DNA of 64,000 nt, taken from positions 1,952,001-2,016,000 of the forward strand of contig NZ_JAQNDL010000003.1 of NCBI RefSeq assembly GCF_028368995.1. Direction: 5' to 3'. Of the stretch, positions 1,471-51,708 are shown in pieces; positions within the stretch are counted from its first letter, which is position 1; each line of letters opens with the position of its first letter. Made by a program: the position numbers and the translations under genes. The notes beneath the pieces are model-generated. The model was given only the letters and a program-made list of their open reading frames with translations. It was not told the origin of the DNA and searched no databases. The DNA comes from Nannocystis bainbridge. GTDB taxonomy: Bacteria; Myxococcota_A; Polyangia; Nannocystales; Nannocystaceae.

Positions 1471-1545
1471 GGCGCCGGGAGTATCACGACGCGCGGCGCG
1501 GCGCGTATACCCCGGCGCCCGGGCGGCGTGTAGCATCCGCCTGCC

Positions 1546-2430
1546 ATGTCCGGGGCCCTCGAGCTGCTGTCCGCCCGCTGGGGCGAGCTTCCGCCGCCGC
1601 TGCGCGAGCGGACCGACGCGGCCGCGCTGGCGAGCGCGTGGCAGGCGATCGCGGCGGCCTGGCCGGGGTTCGCCGCCGACCCGCCGGCGTTCTTCGCCCG
1701 CGTGGCCCCGCGCCTGGCCCCGGACTGCGACATCGCGGCGGTGGCCTGGGCCGACCTGGCGCTCGCCGACGCCTGCCTGCGCGCCCTCCCGGGCGCCCTG
1801 GCGGCCTTCGAGGCGGCCCACGGCGAGGCCCTCGACGCGGCCCTGCAGGCGGTGGGCATCGGCGCCGACGCGCGGGCCGAGGCCCGCCAGCGCCTCCGCC
1901 TGCGCCTGCTGGTCCGCGAGACCGAAGCTCCGCCGCGCCTGGCCAGCTACTCCGGCCGCGGCCCGCTGCGCGCGTGGCTGCGGGTGGCGACGGTGCGCGA
2001 GGCCTTGATGCTGGTCCGCTCGGCCCGCCGCCGCGCCGCCCACGAGATCGAGGACGACGGCGAGCTGCTCGAGCAGGCCGCGGTGGTCGACGATCCGGAG
2101 ATCGTGCTGCTGCGCGAGCGCTGCCGCGAGGAGCTGCGCGCGGCCCTGCGCGCCGCCGTGGCCGCGCTCGACAGCCGCGACCGCACGCTGCTGCGCCTGG
2201 CGCTGCGCGACCGCCTGACCGTCGACCAACTCGGCGCGCTGTTCCACGTCCACCGCTCGACCGCGGCCCGCTGGCTGCGCGCGGTGCAGGCCAAGCTGCA
2301 CGCCGACACCCGCGCCGAGCTGGCCCGCACGCTCCGCCTCGAAGGCGCCGAGATCGAGTCCCTCATCCGCGCGATCGGCAGCCGCATCGACATGAGCCTG
2401 GCCGGCTCGCTCGAGCCGACCATCGCCTGA
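1546..2430 (+). CDS. sigma-70/ECF-like RNA polymerase sigma factor, Myxococcales family
   Basis: DLALADAC, YSGRGPLRAWLRV, DPEIVLLR, and C-terminal HTH LTVDQLGALFHVHRSTAARW. Confidence 0.8.
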   Translation: MSGALELLSARWGELPPPLRERTDAAALASAWQAIAAAWPGFAADPPAFFARVAPRLAPDCDIAAVAWADLALADACLRALPGALAAFEAAHGEALDAALQAVGIGADARAEARQRLRLRLLVRETEAPPRLASYSGRGPLRAWLRVATVREALMLVRSARRRAAHEIEDDGELLEQAAVVDDPEIVLLRERCREELRAALRAAVAALDSRDRTLLRLALRDRLTVDQLGALFHVHRSTAARWLRAVQAKLHADTRAELARTLRLEGAEIESLIRAIGSRIDMSLAGSLEPTIA

Positions 2431-8473: not shown

Positions 8474-9736
8474 TTAGTCCGCGTCTGCCACACGAAACGC
8501 ATCGGCCATGGTGTCTTGTTCGGCCCGCGAGATCTCCGCCGCAGTCGCCTCCGTTCGCCAGCTCCGGACGACTTCCTTGACTTCCTCAATGATCTCTCCG
8601 GCCCTCCGAGGCTTGATGCGGAAGTGCTCTGCAACCTCACGCGCGAGCTCAAGATCTTGCGCGTTGTCCGTTTCGGAGATGTTCATGGAAAGTCCGTCCC
8701 CGCTCCTGACCGGATTCATGTCGTAGGCGGGCGCCAGTGACCACCCAGGAGGCTCGAGCAAGAAGCCGTGATTGCGCGGATGATCGTCAACGTTCGAGAC
8801 GCACACGGAGAAAACGATCCGCCGCCAGAGTTGCTCGAGGTCGCGGTCCGGCTCTACGCCGTGTTGAATGATCACCGCCGCGAGGTCGAGATAGCTCGAG
8901 TCATGGTCGCCGTCGCTCTTCTCGAGCATAGTCATCGCAGACGAGAAGTGAATGCGTTCACCGCTCGCCGAACGATCGAAACGCCGTGAAAGAAAGGTGT
9001 GGTGGGGACTCGCAAAGCGTTGCCGGGTCGAATCGGGGACAATGATGCCCGCACGATACGCCAAGACGTGTACTACGCTCTCCCACGCTCCTATGTCGAC
9101 CTCGTCGTCCTTGCTGGGGAACTTGGCAATCCAAAGCCTTCCGTCCGCGTCATATACGCTGGCCTTCGGTCGGGCCCCCCCCAAAGAGCGCCCCGGTGCG
9201 ATGAGCAACTGCAGCCATTTTTTATAAGACGGATCGTCCTCAACGCCCTGCTGCTCGAGCGCCAAGCTCGCATGTTCCAGCTCTCGCAGAGAGGCCCACG
9301 GCGGAGCCGCCAGATCACGATTGTCGTCCAGAAACGGCCCGTCCTCGACCGCAAAGCGCAACGCCCCCATCCGGTGGCCGTCGTACACGCCCAGGAGAAA
9401 ATCGAGCTCGAAGAGGTGTCGTTGTTTTCGCTTCTCCTCCCTTGCGAGCTGCGCCTCGCGGCGCTTGAGCAGCACTCTGCCCCATCGATCAGGAGAGGAA
9501 TCGAGGAACAGGTTAAAGTTCTCTTTTCCGGCAGAGGGATACTGAGGCCCCTGAAACAGACGCAACGCGGGATCGAGCACTTGGGCCTGTCCGCCTTTGA
9601 GCCACTTCTCATCATATTCGAAGGAAAAGACCTCCTTGGTGCGGACACGCATGGAATGGAGGACCCCCATACGTGTCGGACCGGCGAGTCCCATCCAGTG
9701 GGCCCACACCGTGATACTTCGTCTCTCAGACGTCAT
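8474..9736 (-). CDS. hipA: type II toxin-antitoxin HipA-family kinase toxin
   Basis: [55 protein letters not shown]. Confidence 0.92.
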
Positions 9737-10082
9737 CCTGCTCCCCTCCCGAGGTCTCTGCGCTTTTTGGCTTCCTCGACCGTGGCCGTCGCTCGGGTTG
9801 CATCTTCAAATCCTGAAGCCGCCTCCCGAGTTCATCATCTTTAGCTATCAGCGCGAGGTCTTTCTCCAAACCCAGGCAATGCAACACGTTTGCGTATGCA
9901 CCGATGGTGACCCCGGCTTCTCCTCGTTCGATGGCCCTGAGTGTCGGAGCAGACATACCGGCGCGCTCAGCGACGAGGGCGCTGGGCAGTCTGCGCCGCA
10001 AGCGGGCCAGGCGAATACTCTCCCCCATCTGCTGAAGAAGACGGGAAACTGCGGGCAGCGGGGCCACGGTCGTTCGGGCCAT
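9726..10082 (-). CDS. XRE-family HTH antitoxin (HipB-like)
   Basis: [13 protein letters not shown]...[18 protein letters not shown]; overlaps the hipA start. Confidence 0.88.
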
Positions 10083-10100
10083 GATGAAATTATCTTTTCG

Positions 10101-10115
10101 GAAATCAGCGATTTC
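10101..10115. promoter_or_regulatory. candidate HipB-like operator in an AT-rich promoter
   Basis: GAAATC-AGC-GATTTC inverted repeat about 20 bp upstream of the antitoxin start; GATAAT -10-like hexamer 6 nt before ATG. Confidence 0.45.
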
Positions 10116-10877
10116 TGCAAAAATATTTTCTTTTCGTGTCGGCTTCTCAGCCTGAGTACGCTTTCAGCGCGGAAGCTAACTCACGCCAGGCGCGCGATTT
10201 GCACATGGAGGGAAATCGTGTTGCGCTGATGACGCTGCCAATCAGCTTTCGTAACCGAAAAAATTCCTTCTAGATGAGCGTCGAGTTGAAAGAATATTTT
10301 CTCTCAAGCTAGTCCGTTTCTAATCTTCGTGCACAATTTGCAGTGGCGCAACTCCCGCAAACAAATAGGTCCCTTAGCGCGTCCGTCGCGCACTCGATGC
10401 GGGTTTGCCTCACTCACGCGGTCGCGCCCATCGCGCAGACCTGTCAGCCCAGCTCCAGCGCCGCCACCGCAGCCGTCTCCGCCCCAGGAAAGTTGCCCAA
10501 GTAAATCGCCGTCATCACGCGCCAAGGACGGCTCGCCGTACGTCATGACCTTGTTTCTGTCGGACAGGTTATCTTATGACTCGCACGACGGTCGTACCCG
10601 GGACGTGTTCTCGCTCGGGACGACGCTCTAACCAGCTCTGCACGCAGCTCCTGCCGCGCATAACCGGGCTGCTCTCCATCGTCCTGAGCCTGCCACCGGC
10701 GCCTCACGCCAGGTGATTGTGATGACCTCAACATACCAGCATGTACGTCGGGCCATCTCACTGACGATTCGCGGGTCGACACCGGGCGCCTCGGCCATTC
10801 GCTGCAGGACGTCGATGCGATGACGGAGAGCGTCTCCCAGGCCCTCACAAGGGCGAATTCCGAAGGCCAGCGCATAC

Positions 10878-11303
10878 ATGCCTCCATCCGCGAAAGCTCC
10901 CGTCCTATGCGCCTCTCTCGCCGCGCTCGTGCTCACCGCCTGTGGTGGTGGGATCGAGGGCGTCCGGGCGCGTGCTCCCGTGGATTTGCAGTGTGACGCC
11001 GGGGCGATCGACGTGCGCCCGGCCTCGCCGTCGGGGCCTCCCGCCGGGCCGTTCTACGCCGAGGGCTGTGACCAGCTGTGGCGCTACGTGAGCCCGCCGC
11101 GGGGCAAGACGGAGGGCAATGACGTGAAGGGAATCATCGTCCGCCAGGCGAGCTTCGATCTGTCCTGCAGCGCCGACCAGCTCGAGTTCACGCCGCTGAA
11201 CGCCGACACCTTCGGCGTCAAGGGCTGTGACAAGCAGGCGAGCTACCTCCTCGTGTGTCCGGTCGGCGGCTGCAAGGCCGTGCAGAACACGCAGGCCCAG
11301 TGA
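10878..11303 (+). CDS. lipoprotein with two internal Cys-containing repeats
   Basis: Lipobox VLTAC; RAPVDLQC...AEGC and QASFDLSC...VKGC repeats. Confidence 0.8.
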   Translation: MPPSAKAPVLCASLAALVLTACGGGIEGVRARAPVDLQCDAGAIDVRPASPSGPPAGPFYAEGCDQLWRYVSPPRGKTEGNDVKGIIVRQASFDLSCSADQLEFTPLNADTFGVKGCDKQASYLLVCPVGGCKAVQNTQAQ

Positions 11304-18401: not shown

Positions 18402-19760
18402 ATGTCGACGCCTGTCCCCTCGGCTCACGCCGCCCGCGCCGGCGCCTGGGCGCTGCTCGTCGTGCTCGCCACCGACCTCGTCTTCAGCGCCGCGCGGCAC
18501 ATCGTGCCGCTGGTGCTGCTCGACCCGGACAGGCCGCGGCCGGAGTTCGACTGGTACCGCTGGCTGCAGTGGTTCGACGGCGCCGACCTGCCGCTGCGCG
18601 CCTTGCTCGTGGGGATCCTCGTGATCGGCCTGCTGCGGCTGCGCCGGGGCTCGGCCGATGCTGGCGCGAGGGCCATGTTCCTCGGGTCAGGTGCGGCCAC
18701 GGCGATCTCGCTGGTGGCGCTGCTGATGATGCAGCGGAGGGTCGGCGCCGACGCGCTGCCGGGCACGCTGCTCCCGCTGACGGTCGTGCTCGACCGGCTC
18801 GGCGTCGGCCTGTTGCTGGCGGGGCTGTGGCGGGCGCGGCGGGCCCTGGGCCGCGGCGTCGGGCCTGCGTTGTCGATCGCCGCGTCGATCTTCGGGCTGC
18901 GGCTGGTGCTGCTCTCCGGCGCGATCGACCTCGACTGGGGCGACGGCCACGAGGGCCTCGTGCGCCTCGGCGTGTTGCGGCTCGCGCTCGACGCCGCCGA
19001 GTGCGGCGCGATCATGGCGGCGCTGCTGGGATTCGCTCGCCTCGCGCCGGACGGGCCGCCCGCTGCGCGGCTCACCGCGGCCGCGGCGGGCCTCGACCTC
19101 TACTTCCGCGCCCTGGTCGCCCGCGTCACCATCGTCGCGGTCGGCGTCGTCGTCACTCTGGCGTTCGGCTTCACCTCGCCGACGGCCCGCGGCAAGCTGC
19201 TGTTCGCGGTGCTGGTCCTGCCGCTGCCGACGCTGATCGCCCAGGTCGCGGGGCTGACCCGCTACGCCGACGCGCCGGTCGACGTCGGCCGCGGCGCGCT
19301 GCGGGTCGCGCTGCTGGCGATGGGCGTGGGGGCGGCGGTCGAGATCCTGACGCTGGTGGTCTACGCGCGGCTGGTGTGGCCTGACGGCGACGACGCGTTC
19401 GCGCCGCGGTCGGAGACGCTGGTGTACGCCGACATGTTGAAGTACGTCGGCGTCGGCGGTCAGCTGGTCGCGCTGGTCGGCGCGCTGGCGTTGCTCGCCT
19501 CGTTGCGGCGGGCGGCGCTCGCCCTGGGGGCGCCGGCGCTGCAGCGGCGGGCCACCGCGCTGGCGGTCGCGCTGGCCGGCGTCACCGCCGGCGGCTTCGT
19601 CCTGCTGCGACTATTCGGCCAGACTCTGATTCGCGCCCCCGGAGCGCTGTTCGGGCTCGGCCTCGTCGCGCTCGTGATCGGCGTGACGGTGTTCGTATCG
19701 TGGTTGCGGCTCGTCGAGGGTGTGGCGCAGGAGCTGCGCGCGCGGGCCAAGGGCGCGTGA
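18402..19760 (+). CDS. polytopic membrane protein
   Basis: Start MSTPVPS; about 11-12 hydrophobic segments; GC3-rich frame. Confidence 0.75.
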   Translation: MSTPVPSAHAARAGAWALLVVLATDLVFSAARHIVPLVLLDPDRPRPEFDWYRWLQWFDGADLPLRALLVGILVIGLLRLRRGSADAGARAMFLGSGAATAISLVALLMMQRRVGADALPGTLLPLTVVLDRLGVGLLLAGLWRARRALGRGVGPALSIAASIFGLRLVLLSGAIDLDWGDGHEGLVRLGVLRLALDAAECGAIMAALLGFARLAPDGPPAARLTAAAAGLDLYFRALVARVTIVAVGVVVTLAFGFTSPTARGKLLFAVLVLPLPTLIAQVAGLTRYADAPVDVGRGALRVALLAMGVGAAVEILTLVVYARLVWPDGDDAFAPRSETLVYADMLKYVGVGGQLVALVGALALLASLRRAALALGAPALQRRATALAVALAGVTAGGFVLLRLFGQTLIRAPGALFGLGLVALVIGVTVFVSWLRLVEGVAQELRARAKGA

Positions 19761-27156: not shown

Positions 27157-28028
27157 ACCGCCGGCGCGACCGCCCAGTCGCGCTGCTGGACACCTCGCAG
27201 GCGCTGCCGGCCGTGGCCGACGAGCTGCCGACGCCGCGCCTGCGCCGACTGATGCTGCGAGCCCTGGGGGTGCCGCTGGCGGCGATGTTGCTGCTGTGCG
27301 GGCTGCTCGGCGCCGCGCTGGCGGTCGCCGCCGGGGACGAGGCCGAGGCCGCCCGCGCGCGCACCGTCGTCGCCGAGGCCCACCACGTCCAGCGGCTGGT
27401 GCTCGACCAGGAGGCCGCGCTGCGCGGCTTCGCGATCGGGGGCGAGGATAAATTCTTGCCGCCGCTGCACAGCGGCCGCGCGATGGTCCCACCGGCGCTG
27501 CGCCGCCTGGCCGAGCTGACGGCCGGCGACCGCGCGCAGGAGGCCCGCACCGCCGCGCTGGCGGCCGCCTACGGGCGCTGGGTCGCGGCCACCGGCATGA
27601 CGCCGACAGGCCCGCGCGCCGGCGCACCGGTGCTCCCGGGCGAGCCGTCGCGGCTGGCCGCGCGCGCGGCCCAGCTCGAGGCGGTCCGCCAGCTCGTGCG
27701 CCAATTGGTCGACGCCGAGCACGGGCGCACCGGCGCCGACCAGGCGAGCAGTTGGTCGCTGGCCGCGATCGCGGCCGGGCTGGCGGTCGCCCTGGCGCTC
27801 GTCGGCCTCACGACCTCGGCGCTGCGCCGATCGATCCGCCGCATGGAGGGCGTCTACGCCAGGGCCCTGGTGATGCGCCGCCACAGCGAGGCCAGCGAGC
27901 GCGCCGCCCGACGCTCGGCCGAAGCCCTGGCCGCCGAGGTCGCCGCCCACAGCCGCGAGCTGCAGGCCCGCTTCCGGGCCGCGCGCGACGAGCTCGAGCT
28001 GGCGCGGGCGCCCGCGCGAGCGAGCTGA
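27153..28028 (+). CDS. membrane protein with CHASE3-like domain and no kinase domain
   Basis: GTG overlapping the kdpE stop; TM - LVLDQEAALRGFAIGGEDKFL...LAELTAGDRAQ - TM - coiled coil. Confidence 0.7.
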   Translation: MNRRRDRPVALLDTSQALPAVADELPTPRLRRLMLRALGVPLAAMLLLCGLLGAALAVAAGDEAEAARARTVVAEAHHVQRLVLDQEAALRGFAIGGEDKFLPPLHSGRAMVPPALRRLAELTAGDRAQEARTAALAAAYGRWVAATGMTPTGPRAGAPVLPGEPSRLAARAAQLEAVRQLVRQLVDAEHGRTGADQASSWSLAAIAAGLAVALALVGLTTSALRRSIRRMEGVYARALVMRRHSEASERAARRSAEALAAEVAAHSRELQARFRAARDELELARAPARAS

Positions 28029-28288
28029 CGCCCGCGCCGAGCTGGCGCGAGCGCCCGCGCGAGCGAGCTGACGGCGCTCCGAGCTGGCGCGAGCGAGCTG
28101 ACGGCGCCCCGAGCCGGCGCGAGCGAGATGATGGCGCTCCGAGCTGGCGCGCCCGCCCGCGCGAACGAGCTGACGGCGCTCCGAGCTGGCGCGCCCGCCC
28201 GCGCCAACGAGCTGACGGCGCTCCGAACCGGCGCGAGCGAGCTGACAGCGCTCCGAGCTGGCGCGGGCGTACGCGCAGCGAGCTGACG
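27995..28288. repeat. degenerate tandem repeat, 8 cores, 30-bp and ~42-bp units
   Basis: CGAGCTGACG cores at 28021, 28064, 28094, 28124, 28166, 28208, 28238, 28279. Confidence 0.88.
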
Positions 28289-28380
28289 CCGACCGTTCCC
28301 GCGCCCGCCGGTGCTCGCATTCGCGGCGCCGTCGTCGTCGCGCGCGTCGTGCCCCGCCCGGGCGACCGGCTATCGTGGGC

Positions 28381-29853
28381 ATGGTGACGAACATCCCCTG
28401 GATCATGATCGCGGGCACCGGCACCGACCCGCTGCCCGCCGAGCTCGAGACCGTGGCCCACCAGCTCGGCGTGGCCCTGGCGCGGGCCGACTGCGGCGTC
28501 ATCTCCTGCGGCTGGGCCGGCGTCGACCGTGCGCTCGGGGCCGCGTTCGTCGCCGAGCTGCGCGCCACCCGGCGAGACCCGCGAGACCGCTTCAAGCAGG
28601 TGCTGCAGCGCGGGCGCACCCCGTCGGTCGAGGACGGCGAGTCGATCGACGTCGAGCAGGACGCCGAGGAGTACCTCGTCGCCGTCGACCGGGCCGACGT
28701 CGTGATCCTGCTGGCCGGGCGCGGCGGCACGTACCTCGTGTACAAGCACGCGCGGCGGGCCAACAAGCTCGTGCTGCCGCTGCCGGCCACCGAGGGCGAC
28801 GCGCGGCGGGCCTTCGGCGACATCCGCGACAAGTTCGATCGCGCCGCCAACCTCGGCGTCACCGCGAGCGAGTTCGCCGCCCTCGATCGACCGGCAGGCG
28901 AGGCCGCGGAGGCGGTCCTGCGGCTGATCCGCCAGCACCTCGAGGCGAGGGAGATCCGCGACGGCGACTACCTCAAGGCGGACAGCGTCGTCGGCCGCGA
29001 CAACGAGGCCGCGTTCACGCGATTGGTCCGGGAGATCCAGCGGACCGACATGCTCGGGTTCATCGGCGCCGGTGCGTCGATCCCCGGCGGCTACCCCGAC
29101 TGGGGCACGCTGATCGATCGCATGCGCCACGCGCTGCCGTCCGAGATCGCCCGCACGATGGCGTGGGTGGCCCGCGAGGACGACATGCTCATGCGCGCCG
29201 AGCACTACCGCTCTCTGCTCGGCGAGGACTACGGCCGCTTCATCCGCGAGCAGTTCGACGACGACGCCGGCAGGTGCGGCCCGCTGCACCTCGACCTGGT
29301 CCGCCTGCCGGTCGCGCACGTGCTCACGACCAACTACGACACGCTGCTCGAGCGGGCCCACGCGCAGGCGCACCCGGGCGAGCTGCCGCTGCCGACCGAC
29401 TGGAAGAACGCGTCGGACGTCGAGTCCTTCCTCCGCGCGGCCCGCCGCCGCGGCGAGCGCCGCCGCTACGTGCACGTGCACGGGCTCTACAACGACCCGG
29501 CCCACGTCGTCCTGACCGAGAGCGACTACCAGGAGCGCTACTGCCGGGAGACCGCGAGCGAGGCGCTGCTGTCGGCGCTGTTCACCGCCCACGCGTTCCT
29601 GTTCGTCGGCTTCTCGTTCAGCGACCTCGACGTGATGGGGGTGTTCCGCAACACGATGGCGCGGGTCCGCGTCAGCGAGCCGCTGCACTACGCGTTCATG
29701 GCCCTCGACCCCCGCACGCACGACCCGACGCTGGTCCGCCGCCGCCTGCGGCAGAAGTTCAAGATCGACCCGATCTTTTATATGTACACGCCGGACCACG
29801 CGGGCCTGCGCCAGCTCGTCACGCGCCTGCTGGCGACGACGACACCAGCGTGA
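28381..29853 (+). CDS. SLOG (LOG/Smf-like) domain plus SIR2-like NADase domain fusion
   Basis: N-terminal IMIAGT..SCGWAGVD..ADVVILLAGRGGT..VLPLPATEGDA; C-terminal FIGAGAS, TTNYD, HVHG, VLTESDY, FLFVGFSFSD. Confidence 0.85.
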   Translation: MVTNIPWIMIAGTGTDPLPAELETVAHQLGVALARADCGVISCGWAGVDRALGAAFVAELRATRRDPRDRFKQVLQRGRTPSVEDGESIDVEQDAEEYLVAVDRADVVILLAGRGGTYLVYKHARRANKLVLPLPATEGDARRAFGDIRDKFDRAANLGVTASEFAALDRPAGEAAEAVLRLIRQHLEAREIRDGDYLKADSVVGRDNEAAFTRLVREIQRTDMLGFIGAGASIPGGYPDWGTLIDRMRHALPSEIARTMAWVAREDDMLMRAEHYRSLLGEDYGRFIREQFDDDAGRCGPLHLDLVRLPVAHVLTTNYDTLLERAHAQAHPGELPLPTDWKNASDVESFLRAARRRGERRRYVHVHGLYNDPAHVVLTESDYQERYCRETASEALLSALFTAHAFLFVGFSFSDLDVMGVFRNTMARVRVSEPLHYAFMALDPRTHDPTLVRRRLRQKFKIDPIFYMYTPDHAGLRQLVTRLLATTTPA

Positions 29854-29863
29854 GTGCGAGCGC

Positions 29864-29936
29864 ATGCCCCCGAGGGCATGCTTTTAATGGACATGCGCTG
29901 AAGGACATGCCCGTCCAGACATGTCCATTACGCCAT
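29864..29936. repeat. five-unit array of the TGYC-N6-GRCA palindrome
   Basis: CATG cores spaced 14-15 bp apart between convergent stop codons. Confidence 0.8.
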
Positions 29937-31627: not shown

Positions 31628-31664
31628 ACCCGCGGCGAGGGCGCAGTCGCCTGCACTTCGGAGC

Positions 31665-31694
31665 ATGCCCCTTCGGACATGCCCCGAAGTACAT
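31665..31694. repeat. two-unit array of the TGYC-N6-GRCA palindrome
   Basis: atgcc ccttcg gac atgcc ccgaag tacat. Confidence 0.7.
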
Positions 31695-31705
31695 TACAAA
31701 AAATC

Positions 31706-33124
31706 TCAGAATTGCGAAGCCCGCGGCCACGCCGGCAGCGGCACTGCTTCGCTCAGCGCCACCAGCGACTGCAGCGGCACCCACGTGAAGTCCGGGCGGT
31801 AGTCGAGCTCGTAGGCCAGCTCGTGGAAGCTGCGCTCGATCACACACGCGCGCAGCAGCGGCGACTCGCGGGCCGCGGGCAGCGGCGAGCCGGGCGTCGC
31901 CGCCGCGTCGTAGCCGGCCAAAAACGCCGCTGAAGTCGCCGCTTCCCAGGCCGGGCCGCCCTTGCCGACCATGCCGGCGTAGGCGAACGAGCGCAGCATA
32001 CCGGCGACGTCGCGCAGCGGCAGCTGGCGCAGGCTGCGTTCGGCCAGCGGGCGGGTCGGCTCGCCCTCGAAATCGAGGATCGACCACGCCCCGGACTCCG
32101 GATCGTAGAGCGTCTGGCCCAGGTGGTAATCGCCGTGGATCCGGATCTGCACCCCGGCCGCCGTGCGCAGGCGCTCCTCCGCGTCGGCCAGCAGCGCCTC
32201 GCTGCGGGTCGCCACCACCTCCGCCAGCGCGCGCAGCTCCGGCTGCAGCCCGCGGTAGCGCTGGCCCAGGCGTCCGAGCGCCGCCGCGGCGGTCTGGCGC
32301 AGGCCCACCACCCAGCGGGCCCGGTCGGCCTGCACGATCGCCCGCGTCGCCATCCCGCTCGCCTCGTCGTCGGTCGTCAGCGCCTCGTGCATCGCCCGCG
32401 TCGCCGCCCCGAGCGCTCGCGCCGGGCCGGTCATGTCGGCGCAGGCGAGCGCGTGGGCCCAGCCGTCGACGCGCCCGGGCAAAAACCCGTGCAGCACCCC
32501 GGCTGCGGCTGCGCCCTCGCCTGTGTCGACCGTCAGCTCGGCCAGCAGCGGCGGCGCGTGCGGGAAGCCGCGCGCGGTGAGGAAGCGGCCGAGCTCGAGC
32601 TCCGGGTGGCGGCCGACCTCGATGCGGCGGAACAGCTTGAACACCCCGGCTTCGCCGAGCACCGCCGCGGTGTTGCTCTGCTCGCCGCCGATCAGCCGCA
32701 CGCTCGTCGGCGCCGCCGCGTCCTTCAGGCCCGCCGACGCGCGCGCGGTCCAGCGCGCACTCTGACCTGCGAAGCTCGCGCCGTCGCGCAGGCCGGCCGC
32801 GAGGGCCAGCAGCGCCTCGGGCGCGTCGCTGGCCTCCACCAATTCGACCCCGCCGCCGAGCTCGATGCTGCGCTTCGGGACATGTCCTTCAGGACCTGTC
32901 CCTTCCGACATCTGCGCGCGCAGCAGCACCTGCGTGGTCCACGGCCGCTCGGCCTCGGCGGCCAGCAGGCACAGCGCCGCGTCTTCGCCGAGCTTGGCTG
33001 CGCCGACCAGCTTGACCGCGCGGGCGCCGGCGGGGAACCACCGGCGGCCGGCGAGGAAGCCCAGCCATGTCTCGGAGGACAGCCCGGCCAGGGCCGCCAG
33101 GTCGAGCGCCGGGCTGGCCGTCAC
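31706..33124 (-). CDS. mak: maltokinase (Mak/Pep2)
   Basis: [44 protein letters not shown]; GTG overlaps the treS stop. Confidence 0.88.
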
Positions 33125-34788
33125 GGGCCCTCCGGGGCCCGCTCGGGCGCTTGCAGCGAGAACCAGAAGAACGCGTGCGGCGACATCGTCAGCAGGTACG
33201 GCAGCTGGCCGATGCGGGGGAACGGCCGGTCGCTCCACAGCTCGACCGGGGTCCAGCCGTCGAGCGCCTGCAGGTCGAGCTCGGCGAACTGGGCGAAGCG
33301 CGACAGGTTGTGCACGCACAGCAGCAGCTCGTCGCCCATGCGGCGGAAGAACGCCAGGACCGCGCGGTTCTCCGGGTAGAGCGCCTCGAAGCTGCCGCCG
33401 CCGAACGCCTGGAAGCGCCGGCGCACGCGGACCAGCCGGCGCATCCAGCGGAGCAGCGACGTCCCGGTCCGCTCCTGCGCGTCGACGTTGATGTCCGAGA
33501 AGCTGTACGGCGGGTCGACCAACACCGGCGCGAACAGGGCCGCGCTGTCGGCCCGCGAGAACCCGGCGTTGCGGTCGGCGCTCCACTGCATCGGCGTGCG
33601 CACCCCGTTGCGGTCGCCGAGGAAGATGTTGTCGCCCATCCCGAGCTCGTCGCCGTAGTAGATGATCGGCGTGCCCGGCATCGCCATCAGCAGCGCGCTC
33701 ATCAGCTCGATCTGCCGCCGGCCGTTGTCCATCAGCGGCGCCAGCCGGCGGCGGATGCCGATGTTGATGCGCATCCGCGGGTCGCGGGCGTACTCGCGGT
33801 ACATGTAGTCGCGCTCCTCGTCGGTCACCATCTCGAGCGTCAGCTCGTCGTGGTTGCGGAGGAACATCGCCCACTGCGAGTTCTCGGGGATCGGGGGCGT
33901 GCGCGCCAGGATCTCGACGATCGGCGTGCGGTCCTCGCGGCGCAGCGCCATGTACATGCGCGGCATCAGCGGGAAGTGGAACGCCATGTGGCACTCCGGC
34001 TCGACGTCGGTGCCGAAGTACGGCAGCACGTCCTCGGGCCATTGATTGGCCTCGGCGAGGAACACCCGCCCGGGGAACTCGGCGTCGAGCGCGGCCCGCA
34101 TCTCTCGCAGCACCGCGTGGGTCTCCGGCAGGTTCTCGCAGCTGGTGCCCTCGCGCTCGCACAGGTACGGCACCGCGTCGAGGCGCAGGCCGTCGACCCC
34201 GAGCGCGAGCCAGAAGCGCATGACGTCGGTCAGCAGCTTGCGCACCGTCGGGTTGTCGAAGTTGAGGTCGGGCTGGTGGCTGAAGAAGCGGTGCCAGTAG
34301 AACTGGCCGGCCAGCGGGTCCCAGGCCCAGTTCGAGTTCTCGGTGTCGGTGAAGATGATGCGCGCCCCGGCGTAGCGGGTCGGGTCGTCGCTCCACACAT
34401 AGAGGTCGCGCTCGGGCGAGTCCTTGGGCGCCCGCCGAGCCCGCTGGAACCACGGGTGCTGGTCGGACGTGTGGTTGATGACGAGCTCGGTGATGACCTT
34501 GAGCCCGCGCAGGTGCGCCTCGGCGAGGAAGCGCTTGAAGTCCTCCATCGTCCCGTAGCGCGGGTTGATCGACTCGTAGTCGGCGATGTCGTAGCCGTCG
34601 TCCTTGAGCGGCGACGGGTAGAACGGCAGCAGCCACAGGCACGTCACCCCGAGCTCGGCCAAATAGTCGAGCTTGGCGGTCAGCCCCGGGAAGTCACCGT
34701 ATCCGTCGCCGTCGCTGTCGTGGAACGACTTGACGTGGAGCTGGTAGATGATCGCGTGCTTATACCAGAGCGGTTCGTTTTCGCTCAT
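33121..34788 (-). CDS. treS: trehalose synthase / maltose alpha-D-glucosyltransferase
   Basis: [53 protein letters not shown]. Confidence 0.95.
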
Positions 34789-36779
34789 GTGACCTCCACG
34801 TCGATGTAATTGCGCACCAGTCGGAACAGGTGCCCGGGTTGTGTCACGGGATCGAGGCGAACGTAGTTCCGGCTGCCTCTCCACTCGTAGCGCGCGCCGC
34901 TGACCAGGTCCTCGACGAGGTAGGGCTCGTCGGCGGCGATCCCGAGGGCCTCGAGGGGCACCTCGACCCACCCGTCCTGCTCCTGCGACCAGTCACAGTT
35001 GATCGTGACCAGCACGTCGCCGACTGGCCCCGGCGCGCGCTTGAGGTAGAAGAGGATGTTGGGGTTGTCGCAGGGGTAGAAGGTCAGGTTGTCGTAGCGC
35101 TGCAGCGCCGGGTGCTCGCGCCGCACACGGTTGAGCTGGGTGATCTCGGCGGCCAGGCTGCCGGCGACCGTGTAGTCGCGGTGGCGCAGCTCGTACTTCT
35201 CCGAGTCGAGGTACTCCTCCGAGCCGGCGCGCAGCGGCGTGTTCTCGCCGAGCTCGTAGCCGCTGTAGATGCCGTAGGTCGGCGCCAGCGTGGTCGCCAG
35301 CAGCAGGCGGATCCGGAACGCCGGCAGCCCGCCCCTCTGCAGGTGCTCGGGCAGGATGTCCGGCGTGTTGATGAAGAAGTTGCCGCGGTAGTACTCCTTC
35401 ATCGGCCCCTGCGTCAGCTCGGTGAAGTACTCCTTGAGCTCCTCGGCCGTCGTGCGCCACGTGAAGTACGTGTACGACTGCGTGAACCCGGCCTTGGCCA
35501 GCCAGCGCATGCGCTTGGGCCGGGTGAACGCCTCGGCCAGGAACAGCACGTCGGGGTGCTGCTGCTGGACCTCGGCGATCAGCCACTCCCAGAACGCCAG
35601 CGCCTTGGTGTGCGGGTTGTCGACGCGGAAGATCGTCACCCCGTGCGCGACCCAGAACAGGACGATGTCCTTGCACGCCTGCCACAGCGCCTCGCGGTCC
35701 TCGCACCAGAAATCCAGCGGGTAGATGTCCTGGTACTTCTTCGGCGGGTTCTCGGCGTACTTGATGGTGCCGTCGGGGCGGACGAAGAACCACTCGGGGT
35801 GCTCCTTCAGCCACGGGTGGTCGGGCGAGCACTGCAGCGCGTAGTCGAGGGCGATCTCGAGGCCGAGGCTCTTCGCCGTGCGGGCGAAGCGGTCCCACTC
35901 GGCCAGCGTGCCGAGCTCCGGCGCGACCGCGGTGTGACCCCCGGCCTCGCCGCCGATCGCCCACGGGCTGCCGACGTCGCCGGCCTCCGCGGTGAGGCTG
36001 TTGTTCTTGCCCTTGCGCGAGGCCAGGCCGATCGGGTGGATCGGCGGCAGGTAGACCACGTCGAAGCCCATCGCGGCGACGCGGTAGAGCGCCCGCTCGG
36101 CGTCGGCGAAGCGGCCGTGCACGCCCGGCTCGCCGCACGAGCGCGGGAAGAACTCGTACCAGCCGCCGAAGCGGGCCCGCGCGCGGTCGACCCGGACCGG
36201 GAACACCCGCGGGAACTCGGTGCGGTCGTCGGGTGCGAGGTGCAGCGCCATCAGCGCGCGCAGCTCCGCGTTCTGCGCCGTGACCGCTCGCTCGGCTGGC
36301 CCGCGCTCGGGGTCGCGTAATTCGTCGGCGAGCCGCATGAGCAAGCTCCGGTCGGCCTGGCCCGCGGCGCGCGCGGCGGCGTCCACCATCACCGCACCCT
36401 CGAGCAGCTCGGAGTGGATCGCCTGCCCGGCGGCGAACTTCTTCTCGAGCTCGACGCGCCAGGTCGTGAAGCGATCGGTCCACGCCTCGACGGCGAACGC
36501 CCACGCGCCGGTGCGGTCGAGCGCGATGCGAGCGAACCACCGGTCGCTGTCGTAATCGTAACGGAGCGGCGTGTGGTGCCACGCGCCATCAGGGCCGCAC
36601 CAGCGCACCTGCGCGGCCAGACGGTCGTGGCCGTCCTTGAAGATGTCGGCCTCGACCACCAGCGTGTCGCCGACGACGCGCTTGATCGCGTGACGACCGT
36701 CGTCGAGCGCCGGCGACACGGCCTCGATGATGATCCGTTCAGGGGTTCGGGATGGGGAGCGGACGGCGTTCGATGGCAC
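34785..36779 (-). CDS. glgE: alpha-1,4-glucan:maltose-1-phosphate maltosyltransferase
   Basis: [53 protein letters not shown]; start approximate. Confidence 0.95.
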
Positions 36780-36834
36780 GGCGGAGGTCGGGAGGCGAGT
36801 TGCCCGCGGGGGATGTAAGCGCAAACTCGGGACC

Positions 36835-38994
<2,160 letters not shown>

Positions 38995-51595: not shown

Positions 51596-51708
51596 ATGTC
51601 TTTGAAGACATGTGCCATGATTCCTCGCTAGTCGCCGCGCGGCGCCGTCCCGGGCGCGCTCCGCATGCCCCCAAGGACATGCCCGAATCGACATGTCCCA
51701 TGAGACAC
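51596..51708. repeat. single plus three-unit array of the TGYC-N6-GACA palindrome
   Basis: atgtc tttgaa gacat; atgcc cccaag gac atgcc cgaatc gac atgtc ccatga gacac. Confidence 0.8.

Follow-up and report, generated by a model that had tools for sequence, protein, structure and literature searches.

A SLOG-SIR2 fusion protein of Nannocystis bainbridge: a candidate ligand-gated NAD+-depleting effector distinct from ThsA

Described Relatives

Type I ThsA carries a SIR2 domain followed by a SLOG domain, binds a cyclic ADP-ribose isomer made by a TIR protein, depletes NAD+, and is normally encoded beside thsB. SLOG domains of the LOG type are N-glycosidases, and the SLOG clades were reportedly defined by Burroughs et al. 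in 2015. The protein described here is encoded in a 64-kb stretch of the Nannocystis bainbridge genome that was analysed as a whole (the window). It resembles ThsA of Bacillus cereus (BcThsA; PDB 6LHX, 7UXS, and 8BTO) in that each joins a SLOG domain to a SIR2_2 domain, with the catalytic Asn and His common to both proteins. A Foldseek comparison of the two halves, proposed in an earlier note on this DNA, returned ThsA as the nearest solved structure of each, and by analogy the logic is expected to be the same, with the SLOG domain gating a SIR2 NADase. The two proteins differ in that the domain order is reversed, the SLOG domain belongs to the LDcluster4 clade rather than to STALD, Arg371, Lys388, and Glu403 of BcThsA have no counterparts, a 10-residue loop of ThsA is missing, the SIR2 half does not fall within the ThsA group, and no adjacent thsB is present either in the window or at the locus of the Paraliomyxa ortholog (L001).

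The closest SIR2 domains outside the family are those of the SIR2-pYEATS proteins (~450 aa; L002-L005 and P0021) of Sorangium sp. So ce131, Solibacteraceae, and Acidobacteriota, which share 28–37% identity, score 141–229 bits against the SIR2 profile of the family, and form the adjacent group on the SIR2 tree. In these proteins the SIR2 domain is N-terminal, and a C-terminal pYEATS domain is found instead of an N-terminal SLOG domain. We know of no experimental study of SIR2-pYEATS proteins. The SLOG module, in turn, recurs with the same conserved loops (33–42% identity, E 1e-20 to 1e-28) in LDcluster4 TIR-SLOG and SLOG-TIR proteins (~350–390 aa) and in SLOG-PNP proteins (P0063, P0073, P0112, and P0066 being examples of these fusions). 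All of these are two-domain proteins joining SLOG to an NAD+- or nucleotide-cleaving domain, the effector being TIR/SEFIR or a nucleoside phosphorylase, not SIR2. Their TIR halves match PADLOC bSEFIR, ThsB, or CBASS-effector models, while their SLOG halves match no model.

DSR1 and DSR2 are structural neighbours that share the SIR2_2 NADase domain and the layout, proposed here as well, of a one-gene system with a built-in sensor. In contrast, they measure ~1000–1250 aa, employ helical sensor domains that bind phage proteins, and have no SLOG domain. The NCBIfam equivalogs NF041818 and NF041819 reach only 12.1 and 32.8 bits with the SLOG-SIR2 protein, against cut-offs of 1400, and cover its SIR2 part only.

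Gene and Domain Architecture

The gene occupies positions 28381..29853 on the forward strand and, according to the list of open reading frames and its translation, encodes 490 amino acids plus the stop codon from an ATG start; a GTG at 28375 is an alternative start. Its GC3 of 0.95 is in the same range as that of other host genes, which indicates native codon usage. The SLOG-SIR2 architecture is not confined to the source genome, being shared by ~19 orthologs and by two more clusters at 50% identity. Full-length identity with the orthologs is 42–72%, and the named records place them only in related myxobacteria (Paraliomyxa and a Myxococcales MAG).

The earlier note had read an N-terminal SLOG-like domain and a C-terminal SIR2-like domain, in that order, from the translation, and Pfam, Foldseek, and profile-profile comparison agree on both. 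The two domains are joined by helices encoded at 28894..29043 of the forward strand (approximately residues 172–221), which the full-length model places at residues 172–193, 200–203, and 206–221; the pLDDT of this model dips to 64–73 near residues 190–210.

SLOG Half

Residues 1–195, encoded at 28381..28965 of the forward strand, form an N-terminal SLOG domain that is assigned to the LDcluster4 clade on evidence from Pfam, AlphaFold, Foldseek, and hhalign. Taken alone, the source protein matches Pfam LDcluster4 (PF18306) with E 1e-3 and 19 bits, under the cut-off of 26.3. All 14 of the 14 family members, however, match at E ≤ 0.1 (best 3.5e-6), and phmmer ties the domain (E 1e-20 to 1e-69) to proteins above the LDcluster4 cut-off (for example, P0055, 91 bits; P0056, 56 bits). 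The AlphaFold model of residues 1–195 has a pLDDT of 92.6, and its best Foldseek match in the PDB is the SLOG domain of BcThsA with 3'cADPR (7uxs; TM 0.72, E 3e-8), followed by TM1055, LOG, Moco-carrier, and DprA proteins among 84 matches at E ≤ 1e-3. With hhalign, the domain aligns to ThsA STALD over 169–178 columns with a probability of 91–94% and E 1e-6 to 2e-8. The SLOG identity is therefore established by the matches of all 14 members to LDcluster4, the predicted fold with its Foldseek neighbours, and the profile-profile comparison with STALD. The homology between LDcluster4 SLOG and STALD is visible only at the profile-profile and fold level: Pfam STALD (PF18185) does not match the SLOG-SIR2 protein at E ≤ 1, and a sequence-only search of the N-terminal domain against PDB chains gave nothing significant (best E 0.96, a polyketide synthase thioesterase).

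The glycine-rich loops of the domain are A11-G12-T13-G14, G44-W45-x-G47-V48-D49, G113-x-G115-G116-T117, and G139-D140-A141. The loops characteristic of the clade (GTG, GGWxGVD, GGxGGT, and TGGDA), whose single residues are conserved in 70–97% of 166 aligned domains, are all present in the SLOG-SIR2 protein. Polar residues of the pocket kept across the clade include T13, W45, D49, Q73, T117, T137, and D140. A complex prediction with two copies of the SLOG domain (score 0.01, mark 0.42) has no bearing either way on dimerisation.

SIR2 Half

The C-terminal SIR2_2 domain is encoded at 28993..29835 on the forward strand (approximately residues 205–485), within which Pfam SIR2_2 (PF13289) matches residues 313–465 with E 1.4e-25 and 90.5 bits against a cut-off of 24.5. 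The motifs GAGAS, TTNYD, HG, and GFSFSD, which the earlier note had called intact, are so, and they are invariant in the 14 aligned family members: G229-A-G-A-S233, T316-T-N318-Y-D320, H367-G368, and G410, S412, and D415 of GFSFSD. The protein thus shows the GAGxS, TTNYD, HG, and FxGxSxxD pattern of defence-type SIR2_2 sirtuin NADases. The codon of Asn318 (29332..29334, forward strand; invariant in 14 of 14) specifies the counterpart of BcThsA Asn112, its TTNYD motif aligning with TTNYD of ThsA. That of His367 (29479..29481, forward strand; likewise 14 of 14) specifies the counterpart of BcThsA His152 and aligns with (K/L)-x-H-G-D of ThsA.

The top Foldseek matches of this half are ThsA, DSR2, KomC, and FAM118B. 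A profile of the SLOG-SIR2 family matches SeThsA (E 1e-22) and BcThsA (E 3e-21), and the best PADLOC model is ThsA1 (E 2e-25), in which only the SIR2 part is involved (residues 210–460 against positions 8–246 of the 478-position profile); the ThsA models of PADLOC do not cover residues 1–200. By its motifs and closest relatives, the SIR2 half is of the NADase-effector type, and NADase activity is predicted for it. A tree of 53 SIR2 domains, obtained by a quick search and rooted only at the midpoint, places the 16 SLOG-SIR2 proteins in a single group (SH-aLRT 98) beside the SIR2-pYEATS proteins and the 19 ThsA sequences in a separate group of their own (SH-aLRT 93). The description of the protein as ThsA in reverse domain order thus holds for the two domain types and their order and fails for their lineages, since the SLOG domain is LDcluster4 and the SIR2 domain stands outside the ThsA group.

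Proposed Mode of Action

The reading that we favour, by a modest measure, is that SLOG-SIR2 is a self-contained, ligand-gated, NAD+-depleting effector with a putative role in defence or conflict. The C-terminal SIR2_2 domain would be a defence-type NAD+ hydrolase with Asn318 and His367 as predicted catalytic residues, held under control by the N-terminal LDcluster4 SLOG domain. A small nucleotide-derived ligand would bind the SLOG pocket formed by G12-T13-G14, G44-W45-x-G47-V48-D49, G113-x-G-G-T117, Q73, and T137-x-G-D140-A141, and a resulting change in conformation or oligomeric state would turn on the cleavage of NAD+. Loss of NAD+ may then lead to cell arrest or death, following the same abortive-infection or conflict logic as ThsA. 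The protein would represent an independent fusion, convergent with ThsA, assembled from conflict-system modules, the same SLOG being found on TIR, PNP, protease, and pYEATS domains. The earlier note had proposed an NAD+-depleting effector gated by a nucleotide-like signal; this remains the best reading, in which the relatives of the SIR2_2 domain point to NADase activity and the SLOG fold suggests the gating.

Fusion Partners of the SLOG Module

An exhaustive search found the SLOG module of the SLOG-SIR2 protein in at least 405 protein clusters at 50% identity. Scanning of 133 of the 405 cluster representatives revealed fusions, most often to TIR (at least 37), and further to CHAT (12), pYEATS (10), trypsin (6), SIR2 (2), PNP (1), and caspase (1); STAND/WD40/TPR proteins and Macro are also among the partners of the LDcluster4 SLOG module, and pYEATS co-occurs with it in large proteins. 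The sharing of one regulatory module by many death effectors fits a sensor role, and the pattern of fusions is that by which multicellular bacteria assemble their conflict systems from modules. No PADLOC v2 model matched the SLOG domain, so that a defence role of the LDcluster4 clade would be without precedent. In a literature search judged by title- and abstract-level listings, no experimental account of the clade was found, its accession PF18306 was cited once, in a single paper, and the wording SLOG-SIR2 or SLOG-TIR occurred in no title or abstract of the papers matched.

The same pattern bears on a different role for the SLOG domain, that of a homotypic docking module resembling effector-associated domains, which would recruit SIR2 to large SLOG-bearing STAND/WD40/TPR sensors whose genes lie elsewhere, whether or not a nucleotide bridges the two. 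The module does occur in proteins of 1000–2200 aa with AAA/STAND, WD40, TPR, CHAT, and TIR domains, sometimes in several copies (six matched stretches in P0055), and in short proteins with EAD1 or EAD7; in ThsA, moreover, the ligand adjoins the SLOG-SLOG dimer interface. According to Kaur et al. (2020; PMC7159879), there are stand-alone effectors tied to core systems via shared adaptor domains whose coding sequences lie elsewhere in the genome, an arrangement in keeping with docking. However, the strongest conservation is located in the loops of the nucleotide pocket, which argues for ligand binding rather than for a protein surface, and six-frame scans of two loci, the window and L001, found no second SLOG gene. 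We consider docking unlikely and retain ligand gating as the preferred reading.

Ligand Contacts Compared with ThsA

In the structure of BcThsA, the side chains of Arg371, Lys388, and Glu403 bind the diphosphate and distal ribose of 3'cADPR. According to a profile-profile alignment at ~22% identity, rather than a coordinate superposition, Arg371 corresponds to Leu99 and Glu403 to Val120, and Lys388 is situated in a loop that is deleted from the SLOG-SIR2 protein. The contacts of Gly289 and Gly399 are kept as Gly12 and Gly116, Ser290 is replaced by Thr13, Leu326, which makes a backbone contact, corresponds to Ala46, and the mapping of Gln359 is uncertain. Across 166 domains of the clade, the position equivalent to Arg371 is occupied by T, L, V, S, or I and that equivalent to Glu403 by T, V, I, A, or L. 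ThsA holds 3'cADPR by an Arg, a Lys, and a Glu that the SLOG domain described here lacks, and for this reason the ligand of that domain is probably not 3'cADPR bound in the manner of ThsA. The absence of these charged contacts and the separation of the SIR2 half from the 19 ThsA sequences together make a response to gcADPR unlikely. To judge from these residues, the protein probably answers to a signal other than that of ThsA.

The positions equivalent to Arg371 and Glu403 are those that we take to be the catalytic residues of LOG. The presence of Leu99 and Val120 at these positions favours a binding role over LOG-like catalysis, with a ligand or a binding mode unlike that of ThsA. This weighs against an enzymatic SLOG domain, be it an N-glycosidase of nucleotides or ADP-ribose or a signal processor, that acts in series with SIR2 on NAD+-derived molecules and makes or degrades the signal. 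Such a role would agree with the activity of LOG-type domains and with the nucleotide-processing nature of the partners PNP, TIR, and Macro, and the invariant polar residues D49, T117, and D140 could form an active site. Two papers of the Aravind group (PMC9503650 and PMC7159879) also predict that some conflict-system SLOG domains process ADP-ribose derivatives. Nevertheless, both LOG/ThsA positions carry hydrophobic or small residues in this protein as well as across the clade, and the commonest partners include proteases, which fit poorly into a metabolic series. A catalytic SLOG domain seems quite improbable, and a SLOG domain that binds a ligand and gates SIR2 is the reading carried forward.

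Genomic Setting

The genomic setting of the gene is solitary. As the earlier note had claimed, the window lacks a TIR gene: Pfam and PADLOC scans of the candidate open reading frames found none, and a custom TIR profile matched neither the 727 six-frame segments of the window nor those of L001 (21 kb). With no signal-making enzyme nearby, the trigger would be supplied by a gene located elsewhere in the genome, by an invader, or by a stress. The neighbours in the window are housekeeping genes, namely KdpD/KdpE, a CHASE3 protein, and genes of the trehalose and GlgE pathways. Those at L001 are also of the housekeeping kind and comprise SDR, GST, a dimethylglycine-dehydrogenase-like gene, an FGE-sulfatase/DinB-domain gene, and NadA, and the two loci show no synteny. 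The CHASE3 gene upstream was rejected as a partner, since the Paraliomyxa locus has no such gene and carries an SDR gene in the upstream position.

Pfam and PADLOC found no defence genes beside SLOG-SIR2 in the window or at L001, so that the defence-island association expected of homologs is lacking at both of the two readable loci, a number too small to settle the matter. PADLOC hits to MzaA, SduA, C3a214, and Csa3 in the window fall on a sigma-70 factor, the KdpE receiver, TreS, and an ArsR-type regulator and are read as generic domain matches. Among the 80 genomic loci listed, one (L001) matches at full length and 79 match the SIR2 half only. Homologs covering at least 80% of the protein were found in none of 194 matching plasmid records and not in the one phage record. 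Given this and the native codon usage, nothing marks the gene as mobile immunity.

The gene is flanked upstream by a tandem repeat (27995-28269, forward strand), as had been noted before, for which TRF reports 30- and 42-nt units and in which a 27-nt core occurs six times where 0 copies are expected. It begins inside the last CHASE3 codons and fills most of the 352-bp spacer. As a candidate structured RNA the repeat was rejected, being no more structured than its shuffles (z = -1.2). Two hairpins follow the stop codon (29862..29935, forward strand), the first of which (29862-29881) is succeeded by a T-run and is terminator-like. The 93-nt fold of the hairpin region has an energy of -43.1 kcal/mol (z = -5.2), a value not reached by any of 200 shuffles.

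The setting also bears on a further reading, in which the protein is a sirtuin with a regulatory function in housekeeping, acting as a protein deacylase or ADP-ribosyltransferase, tuned by a SLOG-bound metabolite, and devoid of a conflict role. Housekeeping neighbours at two of two loci, with NadA ~7 kb from the homolog in L001, together with the native codon usage, accord with this idea, and the confinement of named orthologs to related myxobacteria is compatible with vertical descent. On the other hand, the close relatives of known function (ThsA, DSR2, KomC, and FAM118B) are all NADase effectors, the modules that accompany the SLOG clade (TIR, caspase/CHAT, and STAND) are ones typically seen in conflict systems, and the lack of synteny is unlike a conserved housekeeping operon. 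We therefore regard a housekeeping sirtuin as having little likelihood; were it correct, the protein would be a useful warning that not every SIR2_2 protein should be taken for an immune effector.

Least plausible, and very improbable, is a true type I Thoeris effector, that is, a domain-swapped ThsA activated by 3'cADPR from a ThsB-like TIR encoded elsewhere: the domain types, the nearest solved structures of both halves, the best PADLOC model, and the contacts kept at Gly12, Gly116, and Thr13 recall ThsA, but the charged residues map to Leu99, Val120, and a deleted loop, the clade is LDcluster4 without a Pfam STALD match, the SIR2 domain lies outside the ThsA group, and neither the window nor the 21 kb of L001 holds a TIR gene. 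The ligand-gated NAD+-depleting effector is accordingly the reading on which the following considerations rest.

Implications

SLOG-gated SIR2 NADases have so far been understood from one example, ThsA with gcADPR from a neighbouring TIR. SLOG-SIR2 would be a second realisation of this sensor-effector idea, using another SLOG clade and another SIR2 lineage and lacking both the gcADPR-binding residues and a linked signal generator. As a small soluble protein with NAD+ loss as its predicted output, it may offer a practical handle on what SLOG modules sense.

A broader proposal, which we put forward tentatively and hold to be possible though doubtful, is that LDcluster4 SLOG acts as the receptor of a second messenger, or of a nucleotide derived from an invader, other than gcADPR and switches on SIR2, TIR, PNP, and CHAT/caspase/trypsin death effectors in multicellular bacteria. 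If this is true, SLOG-SIR2 would be the simplest member to assay, with one gene and NAD+ loss as the readout, and its ligand would reveal new immune signalling chemistry.

Gene and Domain Structure

The SLOG-SIR2 reading frame lies on the forward strand, with a start at 28375 (GTG) or 28381 (ATG) and a stop codon at 29851-29853, and encodes 490 residues when translated from the ATG. Spurious long ORFs are common at the G+C content of the window (~70%). This ORF is a real and intact gene, since its third-position G+C (0.95) matches that of the real genes of the window, its product has relatives over the full length (42-72% identity), and the fold is confidently predicted, with a mean pLDDT of 80 for the full-length structure and ~92 for the first 190 residues.

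Searched alone, the protein gives a sub-threshold match to Pfam LDcluster4 (19 bits vs a cut-off of 26.3); 14 of 14 aligned family members match it at E ≤ 0.1 (best 3.5e-6), and PF18306 is present in the existing database annotation of three homologs. A plain sequence search of the N-terminal half against PDB chains returned no match. Residues 1-195, modelled separately (pLDDT 92.6, pTM 0.90), find their best PDB match in the SLOG domain of BcThsA with 3'cADPR (7uxs; TM 0.72, E 3e-8), followed by TM1055, LOG proteins, Moco carrier protein, and DprA, and profile-profile alignment with the SLOG (STALD) part of 19 ThsA proteins gave 91-94% probability over 169-178 columns. The family Pfam matches, the fold match and the profile alignment together bear out the proposal of the earlier note that the N-terminal half is a SLOG domain; sequence comparison places it in a clade other than that of ThsA.

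Pfam SIR2_2 matches residues 313-465 (E 1.4e-25, 90.5 bits, cut-off 24.5). The top PADLOC model is ThsA1, aligned over the SIR2 part only (protein 210-460 vs profile 8-246 of 478), with LmuA, PDC-S25, and Dsr models next. The best PDB matches of the full-length model, over ~300 columns each, are BcThsA, SeThsA, EcThsA, DSR2, KomC, and human FAM118B, and the same set is recovered by sequence with the family profile (SeThsA E 1.4e-22). The motifs previously read as intact are indeed so: GAGAS (229-233), TTNYD (316-320) and HG (367-368) are invariant in 14 of 14 members, as are G410, S412, and D415 of GFSFSD (410-415). Asn318 and His367 align with Asn112 and His152 of BcThsA, which are reportedly catalytic in ThsA (Ka et al. 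2020, PMC7272460). The C-terminal half is thereby classed as a defence-type SIR2.

Two homologs, P0018 and P0019, form a divergent SLOG-SIR2 subgroup (42-44% identity) with an extra conserved C-terminal tail of ~80 residues (columns 501-579 of the family alignment) that the window protein lacks. The SIR2 domains closest to the family are those of SIR2-pYEATS proteins, which begin with SIR2, end with a prokaryotic YEATS domain and measure ~450-490 aa. These proteins occur in Sorangium and Acidobacteriota (loci L002-L005, with L002 at 9929-11278, and protein P0021); we know of no study of them.

We give somewhat better than an even chance to the protein being a self-contained ligand-gated NADase. 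A nucleotide-derived small molecule would bind the SLOG pocket, its binding would lift inhibition or drive assembly of the protein, and the activated SIR2 domain would deplete NAD+.

The SLOG Module in Other Proteins

Queried with residues 1-195, an exhaustive phmmer search of 1.84 billion cluster representatives returned 405 matches at E ≤ 1e-3, 224 of them at ≤ 1e-10. Partner domains were scanned with Pfam in 133 of the 150 listed (58 at E ≤ 1e-5, 75 at E ≤ 1e-8); P0188-P0202 and the family members P0003 and P0018, whose SIR2 was already known, lay outside the scan. TIR-type domains are the partner in 37 of the 133 (three more at laxer E), CHAT in 12, pYEATS in 10, Trypsin_2 in six, EAD1 or EAD7 in four, FGE-sulfatase in three, SIR2_2 in two (P0062, P0103), and PNP_UDP_1, caspase, Pkinase, and Macro in one each. 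The SLOG-SIR2 combination is rare, with four among the 150 representatives listed. Stand-alone SLOG proteins of 180-230 aa also occur, and many SLOG-bearing proteins are 1000-2200 aa long with AAA/STAND, WD40 or TPR regions. One protein of 2057 aa (P0055) carries six tandem stretches matching the SLOG domain, together with TIR_2 and a C-terminal FGE-sulfatase; such arrays may act as a built-in pseudo-oligomer.

A structure search of the ESM Atlas paired residues 1-195 with a cyanobacterial TIR+LDcluster4 cluster. No PADLOC v2 model matches the SLOG domain itself, or any of the 12 short SLOG proteins without other PADLOC-matching domains; the fusions are matched only via their TIR (bSEFIR, ThsB, PycTIR/CBASS effector), PNP, SIR2, or trypsin halves. 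Kaur et al. 2020 (PMC7159879) describe modular conflict systems in multicellular bacteria, and the partner mix agrees with their repertoire; the accessible text of that paper names SLOG among nucleotide-signal domains and leaves Sir2 unmentioned.

Genomic Setting

Genes for a P-type ATPase, KdpD, KdpE, and a CHASE3 protein (Pfam/PADLOC) lie upstream on the same strand. The CHASE3 protein (27213-28028, +; domain E 4e-16) has a transmembrane segment and a coiled-coil tail without an output domain; its gene stands directly after kdpD/kdpE, ahead of the SLOG-SIR2 gene, and is missing from the Paraliomyxa locus. The flanking tandem repeat reported earlier is present at 27995-28269 and fills most of the 352-bp spacer between the two genes. 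It consists of G+C-rich 30- and 42-nt units, within which a 27-nt core that is absent elsewhere in the window occurs six times (0 expected), and its fold is no better than that of shuffles (z = -1.2). The repeat starts within the final CHASE3 codons, and therefore each unit copies the CHASE3 3' end including TGA.

A terminator-like hairpin with a T-run (29862-29881, +) begins 9 nt past the SLOG-SIR2 stop, and the 93 nt downstream of the stop hold two hairpins, a fold much stronger than that of shuffles (z = -5.2). Short palindromes with GCATGCC and GGCATGC or GACATG arms follow genes at 29862-29935, 31662-31683, and 51662-51683, three matches to a degenerate pattern vs 0.04 expected; they may represent a genome-specific terminator or REP-like element. 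Further downstream are a small membrane protein gene on the opposite strand, a Kelch-like protein gene, and a complete trehalose/alpha-glucan cluster (31706-38994: maltokinase-like APH, TreS, GlgE, and an OtsA-OtsB fusion) of ordinary metabolism, unrelated to SLOG-SIR2.

Pfam and PADLOC scans of the candidate ORFs of the window detected neither a TIR nor a convincing defence gene. A six-frame scan of 727 segments with a TIR profile, derived from 25 TIR domains that accompany SLOG, gave no match; the earlier note likewise saw no TIR gene. In the same scan the SLOG profile matched the SLOG-SIR2 gene alone. Among the 80 loci kept, one is full-length, that of Paraliomyxa miuraensis (59% identity); the match begins only at residue 192 in the others. 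In Paraliomyxa the gene is preceded by GNAT, HMGL-like enzyme, META-domain protein, and SDR genes and followed by genes for GST, a dimethylglycine-dehydrogenase-like protein, an FGE-sulfatase + DinB domain protein, and NadA, without synteny to the window and with neither a TIR nor another SLOG. Its quinolinate synthase NadA (18616-19650, -; NAD+ biosynthesis) lies ~7 kb downstream and is not seen in the window; the proximity is probably coincidence. None of 194 matching plasmid records, nor the one matching phage record, covers at least 80% of the protein. Because of the missing TIR and defence neighbours, the lack of synteny, and the lack of full-length plasmid or phage records, the gene, with its native codon usage, looks solitary and chromosomal, on the thin basis of two loci.

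That the SLOG domain serves as a homotypic adaptor, docking on large sensors that also bear SLOG, would fit the long AAA/STAND proteins and is rather unlikely; neither locus holds a second SLOG. A housekeeping sirtuin under regulation would suit the housekeeping surroundings and is improbable, the characterised relatives of the SIR2 half being NADase effectors.

Elsewhere in the window, a HipA-like kinase (HipA_C, E 1e-47) and an adjoining HTH_31 protein (8477-10082, -) are likely a toxin-antitoxin pair; this stretch, with a G+C of 0.59-0.62 vs ~0.70 elsewhere, could have been acquired as an island. A transposase-type HTH (HTH_Tnp_4) is encoded by an ORF at 1534-2427 (+) that adjoins the low-G+C (0.615) first kilobase and is possibly an IS remnant.

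Comparison with ThsA

Manik et al. (preprint 10.1101/2022.05.07.491051) give G289, S290, L326, Q359, R371, K388, G399, and E403 as 3'cADPR contacts of BcThsA. These were mapped by chaining an alignment of one ThsA homolog and 6LHX with the SLOG-STALD profile alignment. G289 and G399 are kept as G12 and G116, S290 changes conservatively to T13, the backbone contact L326 corresponds to A46, and the position of Q359 is uncertain. R371 (L99), E403 (V120), and K388, located in a 10-residue ThsA loop missing here, are lost. In 166 aligned domains of the SLOG clade, T/L/V/S/I occupy position 99 and T/V/I/A/L position 120; conserved instead are T13, W45, D49, Q73, T117, T137, and D140, a pocket unlike that of ThsA. 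We take the equivalents of positions 99 and 120 to be the catalytic Arg and Glu in LOG enzymes, and because both are lost, LOG-like N-glycosidase activity appears unlikely; that the SLOG domain, LOG-like in fold, is itself an enzyme is accordingly given a low probability.

A tree of 53 SIR2 domains came from a quick search and was rooted at the midpoint; several of its long branches were flagged, and all rows were kept. In it the 16 SLOG-SIR2 proteins cluster together (SH-aLRT 98), with five SIR2-pYEATS proteins as neighbours (fork support 81, weak), and the 19 ThsA form a cluster of their own (93). The protein has an origin independent of ThsA. The picture of a ThsA with swapped domains is not borne out, and a simple swap is disfavoured because of the lost ligand contacts, the separate SIR2 lineage and the absence of a nearby thsB; a true Thoeris effector activated in trans, to which the shared pairing might point, is very improbable on the same evidence.

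Novelty and Implications

For the self-contained ligand-gated NADase, the enzymatic activity would be expected from the relatives of the SIR2 domain, and gating from the analogy with ThsA and from the repeated attachment of the module to varied effectors. The company that the SLOG module keeps, not the SLOG-SIR2 locus, suggests a role in defence or conflict.

Burroughs et al. 2015 is reportedly the defining bioinformatic paper. A search of a limited literature collection found neither a SIR2 protein with an N-terminal SLOG described nor any account of what LDcluster4 does, although that paper may already depict the architecture; in public records the homologs are labelled simply 'SIR2 family protein'. 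Like ThsA, the protein pairs SLOG and SIR2 as putative sensor and NADase, a kind already known. In contrast to ThsA, and new, are the reversed domain order, the SLOG clade, the lost ligand triad, the SIR2 lineage and the absence of a linked TIR. The architecture itself will be of little surprise to a specialist; a real question is the ligand of this widespread SLOG sensor clade, which the small SLOG-SIR2 protein could make testable.
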